A stretch of 64,000 nucleotides of DNA from Escherichia coli (GCF_003334315.1 NZ_QOWR01000003.1), one strand, 5' to 3'. Positions 1,727-29,100 are shown, counted from the stretch's first letter. Notes: generated by a model not told the origin, from the sequence alone. Numbers and translations: made by a program.

Positions 1727-3589
1727 ATGAGTTTTGATATTGCCAAATACCCGACCCTGGCACTGGTCGACTCCACCCAGGAGTTACGACTGTTGCCGAA
1801 AGAGAGTTTACCGAAACTCTGCGACGAACTGCGCCGCTATTTACTCGACAGCGTGAGCCGTTCCAGCGGGCACTTCGCCTCCGGGCTGGGCACGGTCGAA
1901 CTGACCGTGGCGCTGCACTATGTCTACAACACCCCGTTTGACCAATTGATTTGGGATGTGGGGCATCAGGCTTATCCGCATAAAATTTTGACCGGACGCC
2001 GCGACAAAATCGGCACCATCCGTCAGAAAGGCGGTCTGCACCCGTTCCCGTGGCGCGGCGAAAGCGAATATGACGTATTAAGCGTCGGGCATTCATCAAC
2101 CTCCATCAGTGCCGGAATTGGTATTGCGGTTGCTGCCGAGAAAGAAGGCAAAAATCGCCGCACCGTCTGTGTAATCGGCGATGGTGCGATTACCGCAGGC
2201 ATGGCGTTTGAAGCGATGAATCACGCGGGCGATATCCGTCCTGATATGCTGGTGGTTCTCAACGACAATGAAATGTCGATTTCCGAAAATGTCGGCGCGC
2301 TCAACAACCATCTGGCGCAGCTGCTTTCCGGTAAGCTTTACTCTTCACTGCGCGAAGGCGGGAAAAAAGTTTTCTCTGGCGTTCCGCCAATTAAAGAGCT
2401 GCTCAAACGCACCGAAGAACATATTAAAGGCATGGTAGTGCCTGGCACGTTGTTTGAAGAGCTGGGCTTTAACTACATCGGCCCGGTTGACGGTCACGAT
2501 GTGCTGGGGCTTATCACCACGCTTAAGAACATGCGCGACCTGAAAGGCCCGCAGTTCCTGCATATCATGACCAAAAAAGGTCGTGGTTATGAACCGGCAG
2601 AAAAAGACCCAATCACTTTCCACGCCGTGCCTAAATTTGATCCCTCCAGCGGTTGTTTGCCGAAAAGTAGCGGCGGTTTGCCGAGCTATTCAAAAATCTT
2701 TGGCGACTGGTTGTGCGAAACGGCAGCGAAAGACAACAAGCTGATGGCGATTACTCCGGCGATGCGTGAAGGTTCCGGCATGGTCGAGTTTTCACGTAAA
2801 TTCCCGGATCGCTACTTCGACGTGGCAATTGCCGAGCAACACGCGGTGACCTTTGCTGCGGGTCTGGCGATTGGTGGGTACAAACCCATTGTCGCGATTT
2901 ACTCCACTTTCCTGCAACGCGCCTATGATCAGGTGCTGCATGACGTGGCGATTCAAAAGCTTCCGGTCCTGTTCGCCATCGACCGCGCGGGCATTGTTGG
3001 TGCTGACGGTCAAACCCATCAGGGTGCTTTTGATCTCTCTTACCTGCGCTGCATACCGGAAATGGTCATTATGACCCCGAGCGATGAAAACGAATGTCGC
3101 CAGATGCTCTATACCGGCTATCACTATAACGATGGCCCGTCAGCGGTGCGCTACCCGCGTGGCAACGCGGTCGGCGTGGAACTGACGCCGCTGGAAAAAC
3201 TACCAATTGGCAAAGGCATTGTGAAGCGTCGTGGCGAGAAACTGGCGATCCTTAACTTTGGTACGCTGATGCCAGAAGCGGCGAAAGTCGCCGAATCGCT
3301 GAACGCCACGCTGGTCGATATGCGTTTTGTGAAACCGCTTGATGAAGCGTTAATTCTGGAAATGGCCGCCAGCCATGAAGCGCTGGTCACCGTAGAAGAA
3401 AACGCCATTATGGGCGGCGCAGGCAGCGGCGTGAACGAAGTGCTGATGGCCCATCGTAAACCAGTACCCGTGCTGAACATTGGCCTGCCGGACTTCTTTA
3501 TTCCGCAAGGAACTCAGGAAGAAATGCGCGCCGAACTCGGCCTCGATGCCGCTGGTATGGAAGCCAAAATCAAGGCCTGGCTGGCATAA
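1727..3589 (+). CDS. dxs: 1-deoxy-D-xylulose-5-phosphate synthase
   Basis: 620-aa [29 protein letters not shown]...; TPP-binding [18 protein letters not shown] motif. Confidence 0.97.
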
Positions 3590-3593
3590 TCCC

Positions 3594-3766
3594 TACTCCA
3601 CTCCTGCTATGCTTAAGAAATTATTCATAGACTCTAAATAATTCGAGTTGCAGGAAGGCGGCAAACGAGTGAAGCCCCAGGAGCTTACATAAGTAAGTGA
3701 CTGGGGTGAACGAATGCAGCCGCAGCACATGCAACTTGAAGTATGACGAGTATAGCAGGAGTGGCA
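3594..3766. repeat. ERIC/IRU-like intergenic repeat (large imperfect palindrome)
   Basis: Contains AAGCCCCAGGAGCTTACATAAGTAAGTGACTGGGGTGAACG core typical of ERIC; flanked by inverted arms CTACTCCACTCCTGCTAT (3593-3610) and ATAGCAGGAGTGGCAG (3752-3767); lies between dxs stop and yajO start. Confidence 0.7.
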
Positions 3767-3768
3767 GC

Positions 3769-4743
3769 ATGCAATACAACCCCTTAGGAAAAACCGACCT
3801 TCGCGTTTCCCGACTTTGCCTCGGCTGTATGACCTTTGGCGAGCCAGATCGCGGTAATCACGCATGGACACTGCCGGAAGAAAGCAGCCGTCCCATAATT
3901 AAACGTGCACTGGAAGGCGGCATAAATTTCTTTGATACCGCCAACAGTTATTCTGACGGCAGCAGCGAAGAGATCGTCGGTCGCGCACTGCGGGATTTCG
4001 CCCGTCGTGAAGACGTGGTCGTTGCGACCAAAGTGTTCCATCGCGTTGGTGATTTACCGGAAGGATTATCCCGTGCGCAAATTTTGCGCTCTATCGACGA
4101 CAGCCTGCGACGTCTCGGCATGGATTATGTCGATATCCTGCAAATTCATCGCTGGGATTACAACACGCCGATCGAAGAGACGCTGGAAGCCCTCAACGAC
4201 GTGGTAAAAGCCGGGAAAGCGCGTTATATCGGCGCGTCATCAATGCACGCTTCGCAGTTTGCTCAGGCACTGGAACTCCAAAAACAGCACGGCTGGGCGC
4301 AGTTTGTCAGTATGCAGGATCACTACAATCTGATTTATCGTGAAGAAGAGCGCGAGATGCTACCACTGTGTTATCAGGAGGGCGTGGCGGTAATTCCATG
4401 GAGCCCGCTGGCAAGGGGCCGTCTGACGCGTCCGTGGGGAGAAACTACCGCACGACTGGTGTCTGATGAGGTGGGGAAAAATCTCTATAAAGAAAGCGAT
4501 GAAAATGACGCGCAGATCGCAGAGCGGTTAACAGGCGTCAGTGAAGAACTGGGGGCGACACGAGCACAAGTTGCGCTGGCCTGGTTGTTGAATAAACCGG
4601 GCATTGCCGCACCGATTATCGGAACTTCGCGCGAAGAACAGCTTGATGAGCTATTGAACGCGGTGGATATCACTTTGAAGCCGGAACAGATTGCCGAACT
4701 GGAAACGCCGTATAAACCGCATCCTGTCGTAGGATTTAAATAA
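3769..4743 (+). CDS. yajO: Aldo-keto reductase family oxidoreductase YajO
   Basis: ORF track 3697..4743 trimmed to internal ATG at 3769 (MQYNPLGKTDLRVSRLCLGCMTFGEP...), 324 aa; upstream part of track ORF lies inside the ERIC repeat. Confidence 0.9.
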   Translation: MQYNPLGKTDLRVSRLCLGCMTFGEPDRGNHAWTLPEESSRPIIKRALEGGINFFDTANSYSDGSSEEIVGRALRDFARREDVVVATKVFHRVGDLPEGLSRAQILRSIDDSLRRLGMDYVDILQIHRWDYNTPIEETLEALNDVVKAGKARYIGASSMHASQFAQALELQKQHGWAQFVSMQDHYNLIYREEEREMLPLCYQEGVAVIPWSPLARGRLTRPWGETTARLVSDEVGKNLYKESDENDAQIAERLTGVSEELGATRAQVALAWLLNKPGIAAPIIGTSREEQLDELLNAVDITLKPEQIAELETPYKPHPVVGFK

Positions 4744-26153: not shown

Positions 26154-29100
26154 AAATTCTCAGCCTGCGCCTGAAAAACCTGAACTCATTAAAAGGCGAA
26201 TGGAAGATTGATTTCACCCGCGAGCCGTTCGCCAGCAACGGGCTGTTTGCTATTACCGGCCCAACAGGTGCGGGGAAAACCACCCTGCTGGACGCCATTT
26301 GTCTGGCGCTGTATCACGAAACTCCGCGTCTCTCTAACGTTTCACAATCGCAAAATGATCTCATGACCCGCGATACCGCCGAATGTCTGGCGGAGGTGGA
26401 GTTTGAAGTGAAAGGTGAAGCGTACCGTGCATTCTGGAGCCAGAATCGGGCGCGTAACCAACCCGACGGTAATTTGCAGGTGCCACGCGTAGAGCTGGCG
26501 CGCTGCGCCGACGGCAAAATTCTCGCCGACAAAGTGAAAGATAAGCTGGAACTGACAGCGACGTTAACCGGGCTGGATTACGGGCGCTTCACCCGTTCGA
26601 TGCTGCTTTCGCAGGGGCAATTTGCTGCCTTCCTGAATGCCAAACCCAAAGAACGCGCGGAATTGCTCGAGGAGTTAACCGGCACTGAAATCTACGGGCA
26701 AATCTCGGCGATGGTTTTTGAGCAGCACAAATCGGCCCGCACAGAGCTGGAGAAGCTGCAAGCGCAGGCCAGCGGCGTCACGTTGCTCACGCCGGAACAA
26801 GTGCAATCGCTGACAGCGAGTTTGCAGGTACTTACTGACGAAGAAAAACAGTTAATTACCGCGCAGCAGCAAGAACAACAATCGCTAAACTGGTTAACGC
26901 GTCAGGACGAATTGCAGCAAGAAGCCAGCCGCCGTCAGCAGGCCTTGCAACAGGCGTTAGCCGAAGAAGAAAAAGCGCAACCTCAACTGGCGGCGCTTAG
27001 TCTGGCACAACCGGCACGAAATCTTCGTCCACACTGGGAACGCATCGCAGAACACAGCGCGGCGCTGGCGCATATTCGCCAGCAGATTGAAGAAGTAAAT
27101 ACTCGCTTACAGAGCACAATGGCGCTTCGCGCGAGCATTCGCCACCACGCGGCGAAGCAGTCAGCAGAATTACAGCAGCAGCAACAAAGCCTGAATACCT
27201 GGTTACAGGAACACGACCGCTTCCGTCAGTGGAACAACGAACCGGCGGGTTGGCGTGCGCAGTTCTCCCAACAAACCAGCGATCGCGAGCATCTGCGGCA
27301 ATGGCAGCAACAGTTAACCCATGCTGAGCAAAAACTTAATGCGCTTGCGGCGATCACGTTGACGTTAACCGCCGATGAAGTTGCTACCGCCCTGGCGCAA
27401 CATGCTGAGCAACGCCCACTGCGTCAGCACCTGGTCGCGCTGCATGGACAGATTGTTCCCCAACAAAAACGTCTGGCGCAGTTACAGGTCGCTATCCAGA
27501 ATGTCACGCAAGAACAGACGCAACGTAACGCCGCACTTAACGAAATGCGCCAGCGTTATAAAGAAAAGACGCAGCAACTTGCCGATGTGAAAACCATTTG
27601 CGAGCAGGAAGCGCGCATCAAAACGCTGGAAGCTCAACGTGCACAGTTACAGGCGGGTCAGCCTTGCCCACTTTGTGGTTCCACCAGCCACCCGGCGGTC
27701 GAGGCGTATCAGGCGCTGGAGCCTGGCGTTAATCAGTCTCGATTACTGGCGCTGGAAAACGAAGTTAAAAAGCTCGGTGAAGAAGGTGCGACGCTACGTG
27801 GGCAACTGGACGCCATAACAAAGCAGCTTCAGCGTGATGAAAACGAAGCGCAAAGCCTCCGACAAGATGAGCAAGCACTTACTCAACAATGGCAAGCCGT
27901 CACGGCCAGCCTCAATATCACCTTGCAGCCACTGGACGATATTCAACCGTGGCTGGATGCACAAGATGAGCACGAACGCCAGCTGCGGTTACTCAGCCAA
28001 CGGCATGAATTACAAGGGCAGATTGCCGCGCATAATCAGCAAATTATCCAGTATCAACAGCAAATTGAACAACGCCAGCAACTACTTTTAACGACATTGA
28101 CGGGTTATGCACTGACATTGCCACAGGAAGATGAAGAAGAGAGCTGGTTGGCGACACGTCAGCAAGAAGCGCAGAGCTGGCAGCAACGCCAGAACGAATT
28201 AACCGCGCTGCAAAACCGTATTCAGCAGCTGACGCCGATTCTGGAAACGTTGCCGCAAAGTGATGAACTCCCGCACTGCGAAGAAACTGTGGTATTGGAA
28301 AACTGGCGGCAGGTACATGAACAATGTCTCGCATTACACAGCCAGCAGCAGACGTTACAGCAACAGGATGTTCTGGCGGCGCAAAGTCTGCAAAAAGCCC
28401 AGGCGCAGTTTGACACCGCGCTACAGGCCAGCGTCTTTGACGATCAGCAGGCGTTCCTTGCGGCGCTAATGGATGAACAAACACTAACGCAGCTGGAACA
28501 GCTCAAGCAGAATCTGGAAAACCAGCGCCGTCAGGCGCAAACTCTGGTCACTCAGACAGCAGAAACGCTGGCACAGCATCAACAACACCGACCTGACGAC
28601 GGGTTGGCTCTCACTGTGACGGTGGAGCAGATTCAGCAAGAGTTAGCGCAAACTCACCAAAAGTTGCGTGAAAACACCACGAGTCAAGGCGAGATTCGCC
28701 AGCAGCTGAAGCAGGATGCAGATAACCGTCAGCAACAACAAACCTTAATGCAGCAAATTGCTCAAATGACGCAGCAGGTTGAGGACTGGGGATATCTGAA
28801 TTCGCTAATAGGTTCCAAAGAGGGCGATAAATTCCGCAAGTTTGCCCAGGGGCTGACGCTGGATAATTTAGTCCATCTCGCTAATCAGCAACTTACCCGG
28901 CTGCACGGGCGCTATCTGTTACAGCGCAAAGCCAGCGAGGCGCTGGAAGTCGAGGTTGTTGATACCTGGCAGGCAGATGCGGTACGCGATACCCGTACCC
29001 TTTCCGGCGGCGAAAGTTTCCTCGTTAGTCTGGCGCTGGCGCTGGCGCTTTCGGATCTGGTCAGCCATAAAACACGTATTGACTCGCTGTTCCTTGATGA

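Follow-up and report, generated by a model that had tools for sequence, protein, structure and literature searches.

The stretch analysed here, 64,000 nucleotides of Escherichia coli DNA (GCF_003334315.1, NZ_QOWR01000003.1) that we refer to as the window, is identical in sequence to E. coli K-12. Our subject is the 179-nt spacer between the dxs stop codon (TAA, 3587-3589) and the yajO start codon (ATG at 3769), which carries no annotation in NC_000913.3. Within this spacer lies a copy of the enterobacterial repetitive intergenic consensus (ERIC) element, also called the intergenic repeat unit (IRU), and this copy is nested in an older hairpin of the host that pairs with the Shine-Dalgarno (SD) sequence of yajO. 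Dxs is an essential, flux-controlling enzyme in the synthesis of isoprenoid, thiamine and pyridoxal 5'-phosphate (PLP) precursors. YajO is an alternative enzyme forming 1-deoxy-D-xylulose 5-phosphate (DXP), and its gene is non-essential. Published genome positions (g) were converted to window positions (w) as w = 441128 - g for U00096.2 and w = 441904 - g for U00096.3, and the conversions were checked on gene ends.

An ERIC copy between dxs and yajO

3628-3629, no strand: left TA, one copy of the target-site duplication (125 bp, 123 + 2, are inserted relative to the empty allele, and other copies are flanked by TA)
3630-3752, plus strand: ERIC/IRU body of 123 bp, GACTCT...CGAGTA, in the orientation of the published consensus (left end TACTCT in other copies)
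3668-3711, plus strand: ERIC central core of 44 nt, comprising the complement of the ERIC1R primer and the ERIC2 primer site; 42 of 44 positions match
3697-3768, plus strand: spurious 24-codon N-terminal extension of the yajO frame, from a GTG start within the ERIC
3769-4743, plus strand: yajO coding sequence, 324 amino acids, start as in RefSeq

ERIC/IRU elements of Enterobacteriaceae were reportedly described by Sharples & Lloyd in 1990 and by Hulton et al. in 1991, and they have served in strain typing for 35 years. Positions 3628-3754 hold a full-length element of this kind, consisting of a 123-bp body with a TA on each side, and every defining feature of the family that was tested is present. 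The initial annotation had marked 3594-3766 as an ERIC-like palindromic repeat; that span takes in the ERIC proper together with the arms of the host hairpin described below. The core that it quoted, CCCCAGGAGCTTACATAAGTAAGTGACTGGGG, was found exactly at 3675-3706 and is the sole match in the 64 kb at up to three mismatches, with none in 100 shuffled sequences. The two primer sequences were taken from the literature, where both are carried by 246 papers, and 21 of 22 positions matched for ERIC1R and likewise for ERIC2. A lack of similarity to the ERIC consensus, which the initial annotation had named as the outcome that would speak against it, was therefore not borne out.

The boundaries of the element were evident from its other copies. 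At megablast sensitivity, between 2 and 11 further places per E. coli genome (median 6) showed 91-94% identity to window 3621/3627-3754, and K-12 has been reported to carry about 19-21 ERIC copies. For the copies examined at pgk-fbaA, yafP-rtcB and ybhJ-ybhI, the similarity starts with TACTCTAAAT directly after a TA and stops with GACGAGTA directly before one. The K-12 copy in the dxs-yajO spacer reads TA, GACTC...GAGTA, TA from end to end, and the other copies read TA, TACTC...GAGTA, TA. Its inverted arms are 3628-3652 and 3730-3754. The site is intergenic, between the dxs stop and the yajO start, yet transcribed, with sense and antisense RNA ends mapping inside the ERIC.

The ERIC itself is an already known, ordinary and catalogued type of small mobile repeat. 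According to reviews, it is a miniature inverted-repeat element of 127 bp whose ends carry inverted repeats and a TA each, with duplication of the target (PMC2229807, Table 1). The dxs-yajO copy shares with the family described there a length of about 127 bp, an imperfect palindrome, the core used in ERIC-PCR (polymerase chain reaction), TACTC...GAGTA ends set in TA, an intergenic but transcribed location, multiple copies per genome and presence/absence polymorphism. We found no defining difference. The copy has a G for T at the third position of its left end (TAGACTCT versus TATACTCT) and is about 6-9% divergent from other copies.

Rfam holds no ERIC family as such. Window 3627-3750 gave a full-length, sub-threshold match to V_AS5 (Vibrio antisense RNA AS5; 52.5 bits versus a gathering score of 96, E = 5e-11), and the alignment displays ERIC blocks. 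The V_AS5 family resembles a Vibrio ERIC transcript, and V. cholerae is known to carry ERICs.

The longest open reading frame in the yajO frame spans 3697-4743 (348 amino acids) and opens on the GTG at 3697, inside the repeat. Its first 24 codons are a repeat artefact, as the initial annotation had proposed, because the RefSeq start at 3769 and the N-terminus MQYN... are common to 80 other species, most of them without the repeat.

The insertion is strain-variable, again in agreement with what had been proposed. Amongst 5426 complete E. coli genomes, the dxs-yajO junction was filled in 2844 (about 52%) and empty in 2489 (about 46%). The two alleles differ by a clean 125-bp block, the empty spacer measuring 54 nt and the K-12 spacer 179 nt. 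Filled strains include K-12, C600, B derivatives, O111:H8 and O128:H27, and empty strains include O157:H7, 536 and NC101. The element entered at the TA that forms the 3' edge of the loop of the host hairpin, immediately 5' to its right arm. Right-junction variants amongst filled alleles are TATAGCAGG (K-12), TATGGCAGG and TATAGCGGG. Empty sites in Escherichia read TG where a model of TA duplication expects TA (window 3628-3629 and 3753-3754; positions 592-593 of locus L001). This TG could stem from mutation in parallel, from recombination or from a TA-ERIC-TG allele that lost its ERIC by precise excision. The same G is also seen to the right of the ERIC in about half of the filled alleles sampled.

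A host hairpin around the yajO Shine-Dalgarno sequence

3598-3609, plus strand: left arm of the host hairpin, CCACTCCTGCTA, containing the anti-SD sequence CTCCT; present in the empty allele and kept in 80 species, where changes in the outer pairs compensate each other
3753-3764, plus strand: right arm of the host hairpin, TAGCAGGAGTGG, including the right TA (3753-3754) and the yajO SD AGGAG (3757-3761)

RNA folding of 3585-3785 gave one long hairpin of -80.4 kcal/mol (z = -7.9), a stability reached by none of 200 dinucleotide shuffles. Outside the arms of the ERIC, the stem is continued by a second inverted repeat, 3598-3613 with 3749-3764, which is 16 nt long and 94% complementary. The initial annotation had described the ERIC core as flanked by inverted arms. 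The arms are real, but the outer pair (3598-3609 and 3753-3764) belongs to a conserved host hairpin that is older than the ERIC and pairs the anti-SD CUCCU with the yajO SD AGGAG. This was directly visible in the empty allele, which reads CCACTCCTGCTA, 18 nt and TGGCAGGAGTGG, and thus holds both arms where no ERIC is present.

The conservation of the hairpin was surveyed with one genome per species, which yielded 80 Enterobacteriaceae loci. In all 80, dxs lies immediately upstream of yajO, and in 75 the spacer measures 54-75 nt. The same hairpin folds in 80 of 80 spacers, with energies from -19 to -41 kcal/mol. When the arms were aligned in register, 87% of cells formed standard pairs and five pairs showed double changes, the three outer pairs alternating among C-G, U-A, G-C, A-U and G-U. 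The covariation lay above that of every column shuffle (0 of 500) and the number of paired cells above every slid register, with the caveat that the aligned sequences are related. A scan of four ERIC-less loci against Rfam found no family matching the host hairpin.

These observations also bear on whether the outer arms are part of the repeat, in which case the element would be a longer ERIC of about 170 bp whose ends bear additional inverted repeats. In favor of this, the arms directly adjoin the ERIC and prolong its stem. However, both arms are kept in the empty allele, they occur in 80 of 80 species, most of which have no ERIC at all, and the similarity of other copies ends exactly at TA/TACTC and GAGTA/TA. 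The empty allele, the species survey and the copy boundaries refute a longer ERIC, and we regard its probability as practically nil.

The predicted accessibility of the SD depends on whether an RNA includes the left arm. In RNAs that do, either by read-through from dxs or by a start at 3597, the predicted probability of an unpaired SD was 0.00 in filled and empty alleles alike. In RNAs starting at 3620, 3675 or 3728, the SD was predicted to be partly open (unpaired probability 0.2-0.97). The folding models therefore indicate that the ERIC does not break the host stem but lengthens it: the element is self-complementary, and therefore the host stem is predicted to stay closed and the SD to stay buried. 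With its SD in a stem and with compensatory changes in the pairing, the structure has the hallmarks of an SD-sequestering hairpin, and repression of yajO translation is predicted; the increase of a yajO fusion in rhoR66S, given below, is an indirect hint to that effect.

A comparable arrangement is the fold-back inhibition of IS10 transposase translation, reportedly described by Davis, Simons & Kleckner in 1985. There too, an upstream segment of an incoming transcript pairs with the ribosome-binding site and leaves the read-through RNA untranslated. Unlike IS10, the gene concerned here is a host metabolic gene and not a transposase gene, and an internal promoter that bypasses the anti-SD would be a conjecture in the case of yajO.

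Other uses of the palindrome and of the sequence around it were considered and rejected. An operator for a dimeric protein does not fit an arm spacing that ranges from about 18 to 35 nt across species. A leader peptide begun at the conserved AUG 3610 was rejected, as was a frame reading through the dxs stop codon, for want of an SD and of a frame conserved across species. Between the dxs stop and the hairpin, most species have a C/U-rich tract of 8-20 nt (e.g., TCCCTCCCCTTTCC; window 3590-3597, loci L004-L083).

RNA ends and promoter motifs on both strands

3749-3757, minus strand: TGCTATACT, an extended -10 and sigma-S-type -10 (CTATACT), candidate promoter, made up of host TGC (3757-3755), TA (3754-3753) and the ERIC terminus TACT (3752-3749)
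3531-3742, minus strand: antisense RNA with its 5' end at 3742 and its 3' end at 3531 (212 nt), with a longer form to about 3177; spans the ERIC, the left arm and the dxs 3' end
3549-3735, no strand: S-43, a p19-captured, RNase III-derived cluster of double-stranded RNA (dsRNA) (437,393-437,579; PMC7373196, Table 2)
3659-3799, no strand: chromatin immunoprecipitation (ChIP-seq) peak of sigma-S RNA polymerase, assigned by its authors to yajO (437,329-437,469; Peano et al. 2015, PMC4447067)

In K-12, published data place the start of an antisense RNA at the right junction of the ERIC, within a region that is a hot spot of RNase III-derived dsRNA. Cappable-seq reports a transcription start site (TSS) at 437,386(+) with a score of 38.7, which corresponds to window 3742 on the minus strand. 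The antisense TSS of Thomason at 437,386(+) and a transcription unit of Conway at 437,387-437,951 (564 nt) are both listed by Huang et al. (2020; PMC7373196, Table S1e). The Term-seq data of Adams et al. (2021) contain an antisense 3' end at 438,373(+), or window 3531. The TSS at 3742 and the 3' end at 3531 together therefore delimit an antisense RNA of 212 nt.

The TSS sits exactly 7 nt downstream of TGCTATACT, a motif that spans the junction of host and repeat. It is laid out with TG at -15/-14, C at -13 and TATACT at -12 to -7, and contains the CTATACT of the sigma-S -10 consensus, KCTAYRCTTAA as quoted in PMC5650638. The empty allele reads TGCCATGAA at this position. This hybrid motif is thus probably the promoter of the antisense RNA, which would make that RNA dependent on the ERIC. 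As a separate observation, an ERIC with its TA duplication generally ends in TATACT when read inward on both strands, giving two inward-facing -10-like hexamers per insertion; the left one reads TAGACT in the dxs-yajO copy.

The antisense RNA is abundant relative to its surroundings. In total RNA, Huang et al. (2020) report 52.8 antisense reads per million (RPM) over dxs versus 71.1 in the sense direction, and antisense values of 5.0 over ispA, 1.4 over xseB and 5.0 over yajO (PMC7373196, Table S1c). In the same study, S-43 ranks fourth amongst the dsRNA clusters of K-12 that overlap coding genes, and the authors explain it by a new antisense RNA whose start lies downstream of dxs. An alternative source of the dsRNA would be the ERIC itself, through self-folding or through pairing in trans with oppositely oriented copies, and the long ERIC stem and the presence of several 91-94% identical copies in E. 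coli speak for it. However, the cluster reaches into unique sequence (3549-3627), including 41 nt of dxs, the authors of the p19 method state that imperfect intramolecular stems go unreported (PMC7373196), and independent methods find a local antisense start site and antisense reads. An origin other than local antisense transcription is consequently quite improbable.

The ChIP-seq peak of sigma-S RNA polymerase that was assigned to yajO can be re-interpreted in the same light. Its centre (about 3729) is nearer to the candidate antisense promoter, about 30 bp away, than to the sense motif at 3606-3616 discussed below, at a distance of about 130 bp, and the supplement of Peano et al. holds no yajO entry. 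For this region, Cho et al. (2014) report D+S sigma binding.

3582-3590, plus strand: TGGCATAAT, an extended -10-like motif overlapping the dxs stop, which from its sequence is a candidate promoter for a start at 3597
3606-3616, plus strand: GCTATGCTTAA, an exact match to the sigma-S -10 consensus KCTAYRCTTAA and the sole match in the window; putative promoter with a predicted start near 3620
3675 and 3728, plus strand: two sense 5' ends that fall within the ERIC and were listed as starts of yajO transcription (Cho et al. 2014, Table S6)

On the sense strand, the "entire 5' UTR" (untranslated region) fusion of yajO made by Adams et al. (2021) begins with TCCACTCC..., at 3597 and 7 nt after the hexamer of TGGCATAAT, which implies a sense TSS at that position. 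The CATAAT of TGGCATAAT is found in only about 25 of the 80 species, and the motif is not widely conserved. A strong sense 3' end was located at 3769, 3 nt past the base of the hairpin (Term-seq 438,135(-), score 38,352), with a significant Rho score of 2.89 and a low intrinsic-terminator score of 1.03 (Adams et al. 2021). The same authors place a Rho termination region at 438,058(-), window 3846, and found expression of a lacZ fusion to the yajO 5' UTR and reading frame more than 2-fold higher in rhoR66S. No intrinsic terminator was detected within 3400-3900.

The two 5' ends inside the ERIC were recorded by Cho et al. (2014) at 437,453(-) with 151 reads (3675) and at 437,400(-) with 178 reads (3728), with sigma binding given as D+S and neither letter in the motif column. 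Both ends lack an upstream sigma-70 or sigma-S motif and are probably processing products. In stationary phase, deletion of rpoS lowered yajO about 2.8-fold and raised dxs, ispA and xseB (Cho et al. 2014).

The motif in the left arm stands apart from its surroundings in its conservation. TGCTATGCT was present in 79 of 80 species and the exact KCTAYRCTTAA consensus in 69, next to a loop that cannot be aligned. The mirror-image position on the other strand is -10-like in just 6 of 80 species. Since the motif is kept in 79 species while its mirror image is -10-like in 6, the species alignment argues that the motif is constrained beyond the needs of pairing.

These findings raise the alternative that TGCTATGCTTAA in the left arm is yajO's own sigma-S promoter, with a start near 3620, and that the hairpin acts as a fold-back insulator: dxs RNA carrying the anti-SD would stay untranslated, RNA started in the loop would be translated, and in K-12 the ERIC would simply lie in the 5' UTR. 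The exact consensus match, its conservation in nearly all species with a pairing partner that is not conserved in mirror image, the sigma-S dependence of yajO in opposition to dxs, ispA and xseB, and the opening of the SD in the predicted RNA starting at 3620 are all in its favor. However, mapped ends do not support it: neither Cho et al. (2014) nor the Thomason LB2.0 list quoted in PMC7373196 has a 5' end near 3620 (Cappable-seq was covered for the genome plus strand only), the former giving 3675 and 3728, and Adams et al. (2021) used 3597. The sigma-S ChIP peak is also centred about 130 bp away. We regard a sense promoter in the left arm as a tentative possibility that is less likely than not.

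A promoter scan also gave a hybrid match, TTAAGA-18-AATAAT at 3613-3642 (plus strand, 9 of 12 positions), which runs across the host loop and the left end of the ERIC. It was rejected as a promoter, as no mapped RNA 5' end supports the site.

Interpretation, related insertions and known systems

We consider the following explanation probable as a whole: the ERIC is nested in a conserved stem-loop of the host that sequesters the SD, its right junction spells an antisense promoter, and a chain of events involving Rho and the hairpin follows. The host hairpin is old, and the ERIC entered its loop later, at the TA of the 3' edge. By folding back on itself, it would let the host arms close, so that the yajO ribosome-binding site would be buried in RNAs that include the left arm. 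Ribosomes would then load poorly and Rho would terminate transcription about 80 nt into yajO, while the composite hairpin (-80 kcal/mol) would block 3' trimming, which would explain why the 3' end at 3769 is so strong and would protect the 3' end of dxs. RNAs begun or cut downstream of the left arm (3620, 3675, 3728) would be the translated ones. On the other strand, TGCTATACT would fire at 3742, and the resulting antisense RNA across the ERIC and the dxs 3' end would pair with sense RNA and be cleaved by RNase III. An effect on the levels of Dxs or YajO may follow from these events.

Several points weigh against this explanation. The initial annotation had suggested that such insertions can have consequences at the RNA level, and published data show them at this site, but all functional data come from ERIC-carrying, K-12-type strains, and the dependence of the antisense RNA, the 3' end and Rho termination on the ERIC is not separated in them from dependence on the host hairpin. 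About half of the filled alleles sampled are one base off the K-12 junction (TGCCATACT or CCGCTATACT), and the perfect -10 is thus not general. Huang et al. (2020; PMC7373196) never mention ERIC or link the locus to it, and p19 capture cannot tell reads of this locus from those of other ERIC copies within the conserved core. Additionally, the consensus promoter scan reported neither extended -10 motif, as it requires a -35. Lastly, an insertion at about 50% frequency with neither state visibly favored is what would be expected of a neutral passenger.

The last point leads to the view that the ERIC merely occupies a tolerant hairpin loop, leaving the host stem intact and without effect on fitness or on Dxs and YajO, with both the antisense RNA and the dsRNA arising as noise of transcription. 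A polymorphism close to 50/50 would fit neutrality. The coexistence of several junction variants, the equal predicted occlusion of the SD in filled and empty alleles, the dispensability of yajO and the conservation of the host hairpin without an ERIC in 75 of 80 species point in the same direction. Against mere noise stand the abundance of the antisense RNA, which over dxs amounts to 74% of the sense signal versus 3-9% at neighboring genes, and the fourth rank of the dsRNA cluster; these argue for consequences that are molecular, though not for fitness. We give neutrality a chance somewhat below even.

A more far-reaching proposal would assign the insertion a regulatory role. In about a quarter to half of E. 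coli, those with the K-12-type junction, the inserted ERIC would have completed the mirror image of a promoter-like palindrome conserved in the host, and thereby given rise to an antisense promoter used by sigma-S in stationary phase. The antisense RNA and RNase III would cut down the 3' end of dxs mRNA and sever the anti-SD arm from the yajO message. YajO would thereby be switched on, from messages whose 5' ends lie at 3675 and 3728, and strains without the ERIC would lack the switch and rely on the conserved sense motif alone. We view this proposal as unlikely.

Returning to the nested ERIC with its putative junction promoter, the locus amounts to an experiment set up by nature: filled and cleanly empty sites each make up about half of sequenced E. 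coli, beside the essential gene dxs, and the K-12 read-outs (antisense start, dsRNA cluster, 3' end and Rho dependence) are already available at single-base resolution. What our analysis adds is the correct anatomy of the site, a test system of filled and empty alleles, and a repeat that ties together three published but unconnected observations. The sigma-S ChIP peak assigned to yajO by its authors and the "new antisense RNA", which was reported without notice of the repeat, are re-interpreted. The survey also flags, across Enterobacteriaceae, an unannotated and conserved hairpin, predicted to sequester the SD, together with a sigma-S-like motif upstream of yajO. The putative junction promoter and the host hairpin are modestly interesting and open to direct testing.

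The TA in the hairpin loop has been occupied elsewhere. Two Phytobacter species and "Kosakonia sp. S29" carry ERIC-like elements at this very TA, oriented alike (L028:1312-1503, L033, L040, L041), and an internally deleted remnant of which only both ends are kept was found in the related metagenome-assembled genome (MAG) UBA3516. The cores of the Phytobacter and Kosakonia elements (CATAGACACCTATG) are more divergent from the E. coli copies than these are amongst themselves, and because of this divergence independent insertions into the same TA are the simpler reading of the sequences. Additionally, a longer form of the ERIC at dxs-yajO, with a 78-bp internal insert after window 3713, is carried by the E. 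albertii type strain and by about 119 genomes of E. coli (L002:675-752, L005, L092). The 78-bp insert folds into three small hairpins, and an insert of 92% similarity is found at another locus in about 523 genomes, e.g., UTI89.

The closest known systems include the ERICs of Yersinia. In the part of that work (De Gregorio et al. 2005) that is summarised in PMC2229807, PMC3184786 and PMC2267715, these are described as determinants of RNA stability. As at dxs-yajO, such an element is co-transcribed between two genes of one unit, forms an RNA hairpin and would be expected to shift the ratio of upstream to downstream RNA. According to the same summaries, the mechanism in Yersinia is a ribosome-dependent and orientation-dependent unmasking of an RNase E site. 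In contrast, the dxs-yajO ERIC is nested in a host stem predicted to sequester an SD, and what has been documented there is termination by Rho, antisense transcription and an RNA 3' end at the base of the hairpin. The Correia elements of Neisseria (Neisseria miniature insertion sequences, NEMIS; PMC2229807, PMC3184786) are likewise TA-ended miniature elements that can supply promoter elements and whose RNA is processed. They differ in belonging to an unrelated sequence family in other hosts, and the -10 at dxs-yajO is composed of host bases, the TA and the element terminus, in antisense orientation.

Repetitive extragenic palindromes and the bacterial interspersed mosaic elements built on them (REP/BIME) are 3' stabilisers of upstream mRNA. 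They share with the dxs-yajO structure a stable intercistronic hairpin at which 3' ends accumulate. They differ in being another repeat family; at dxs-yajO much of the stem base is host sequence and the downstream termination is Rho-dependent.

Minor matches were also recorded away from the spacer. On NZ_CP114132.1, a 439-kb E. coli plasmid, positions 28476-28511 match window 3721-3756, in the right arm of the ERIC, exactly over 36 nt; plasmid-borne, ERIC-related places are rare (22 of 30,781). Downstream of yajO, sub-threshold matches to naRNA4, a REP-like nucleoid-associated RNA, were seen in Klebsiella grimontii (L074:2579-2658) and Salmonella diarizonae (L020:2509-2545).

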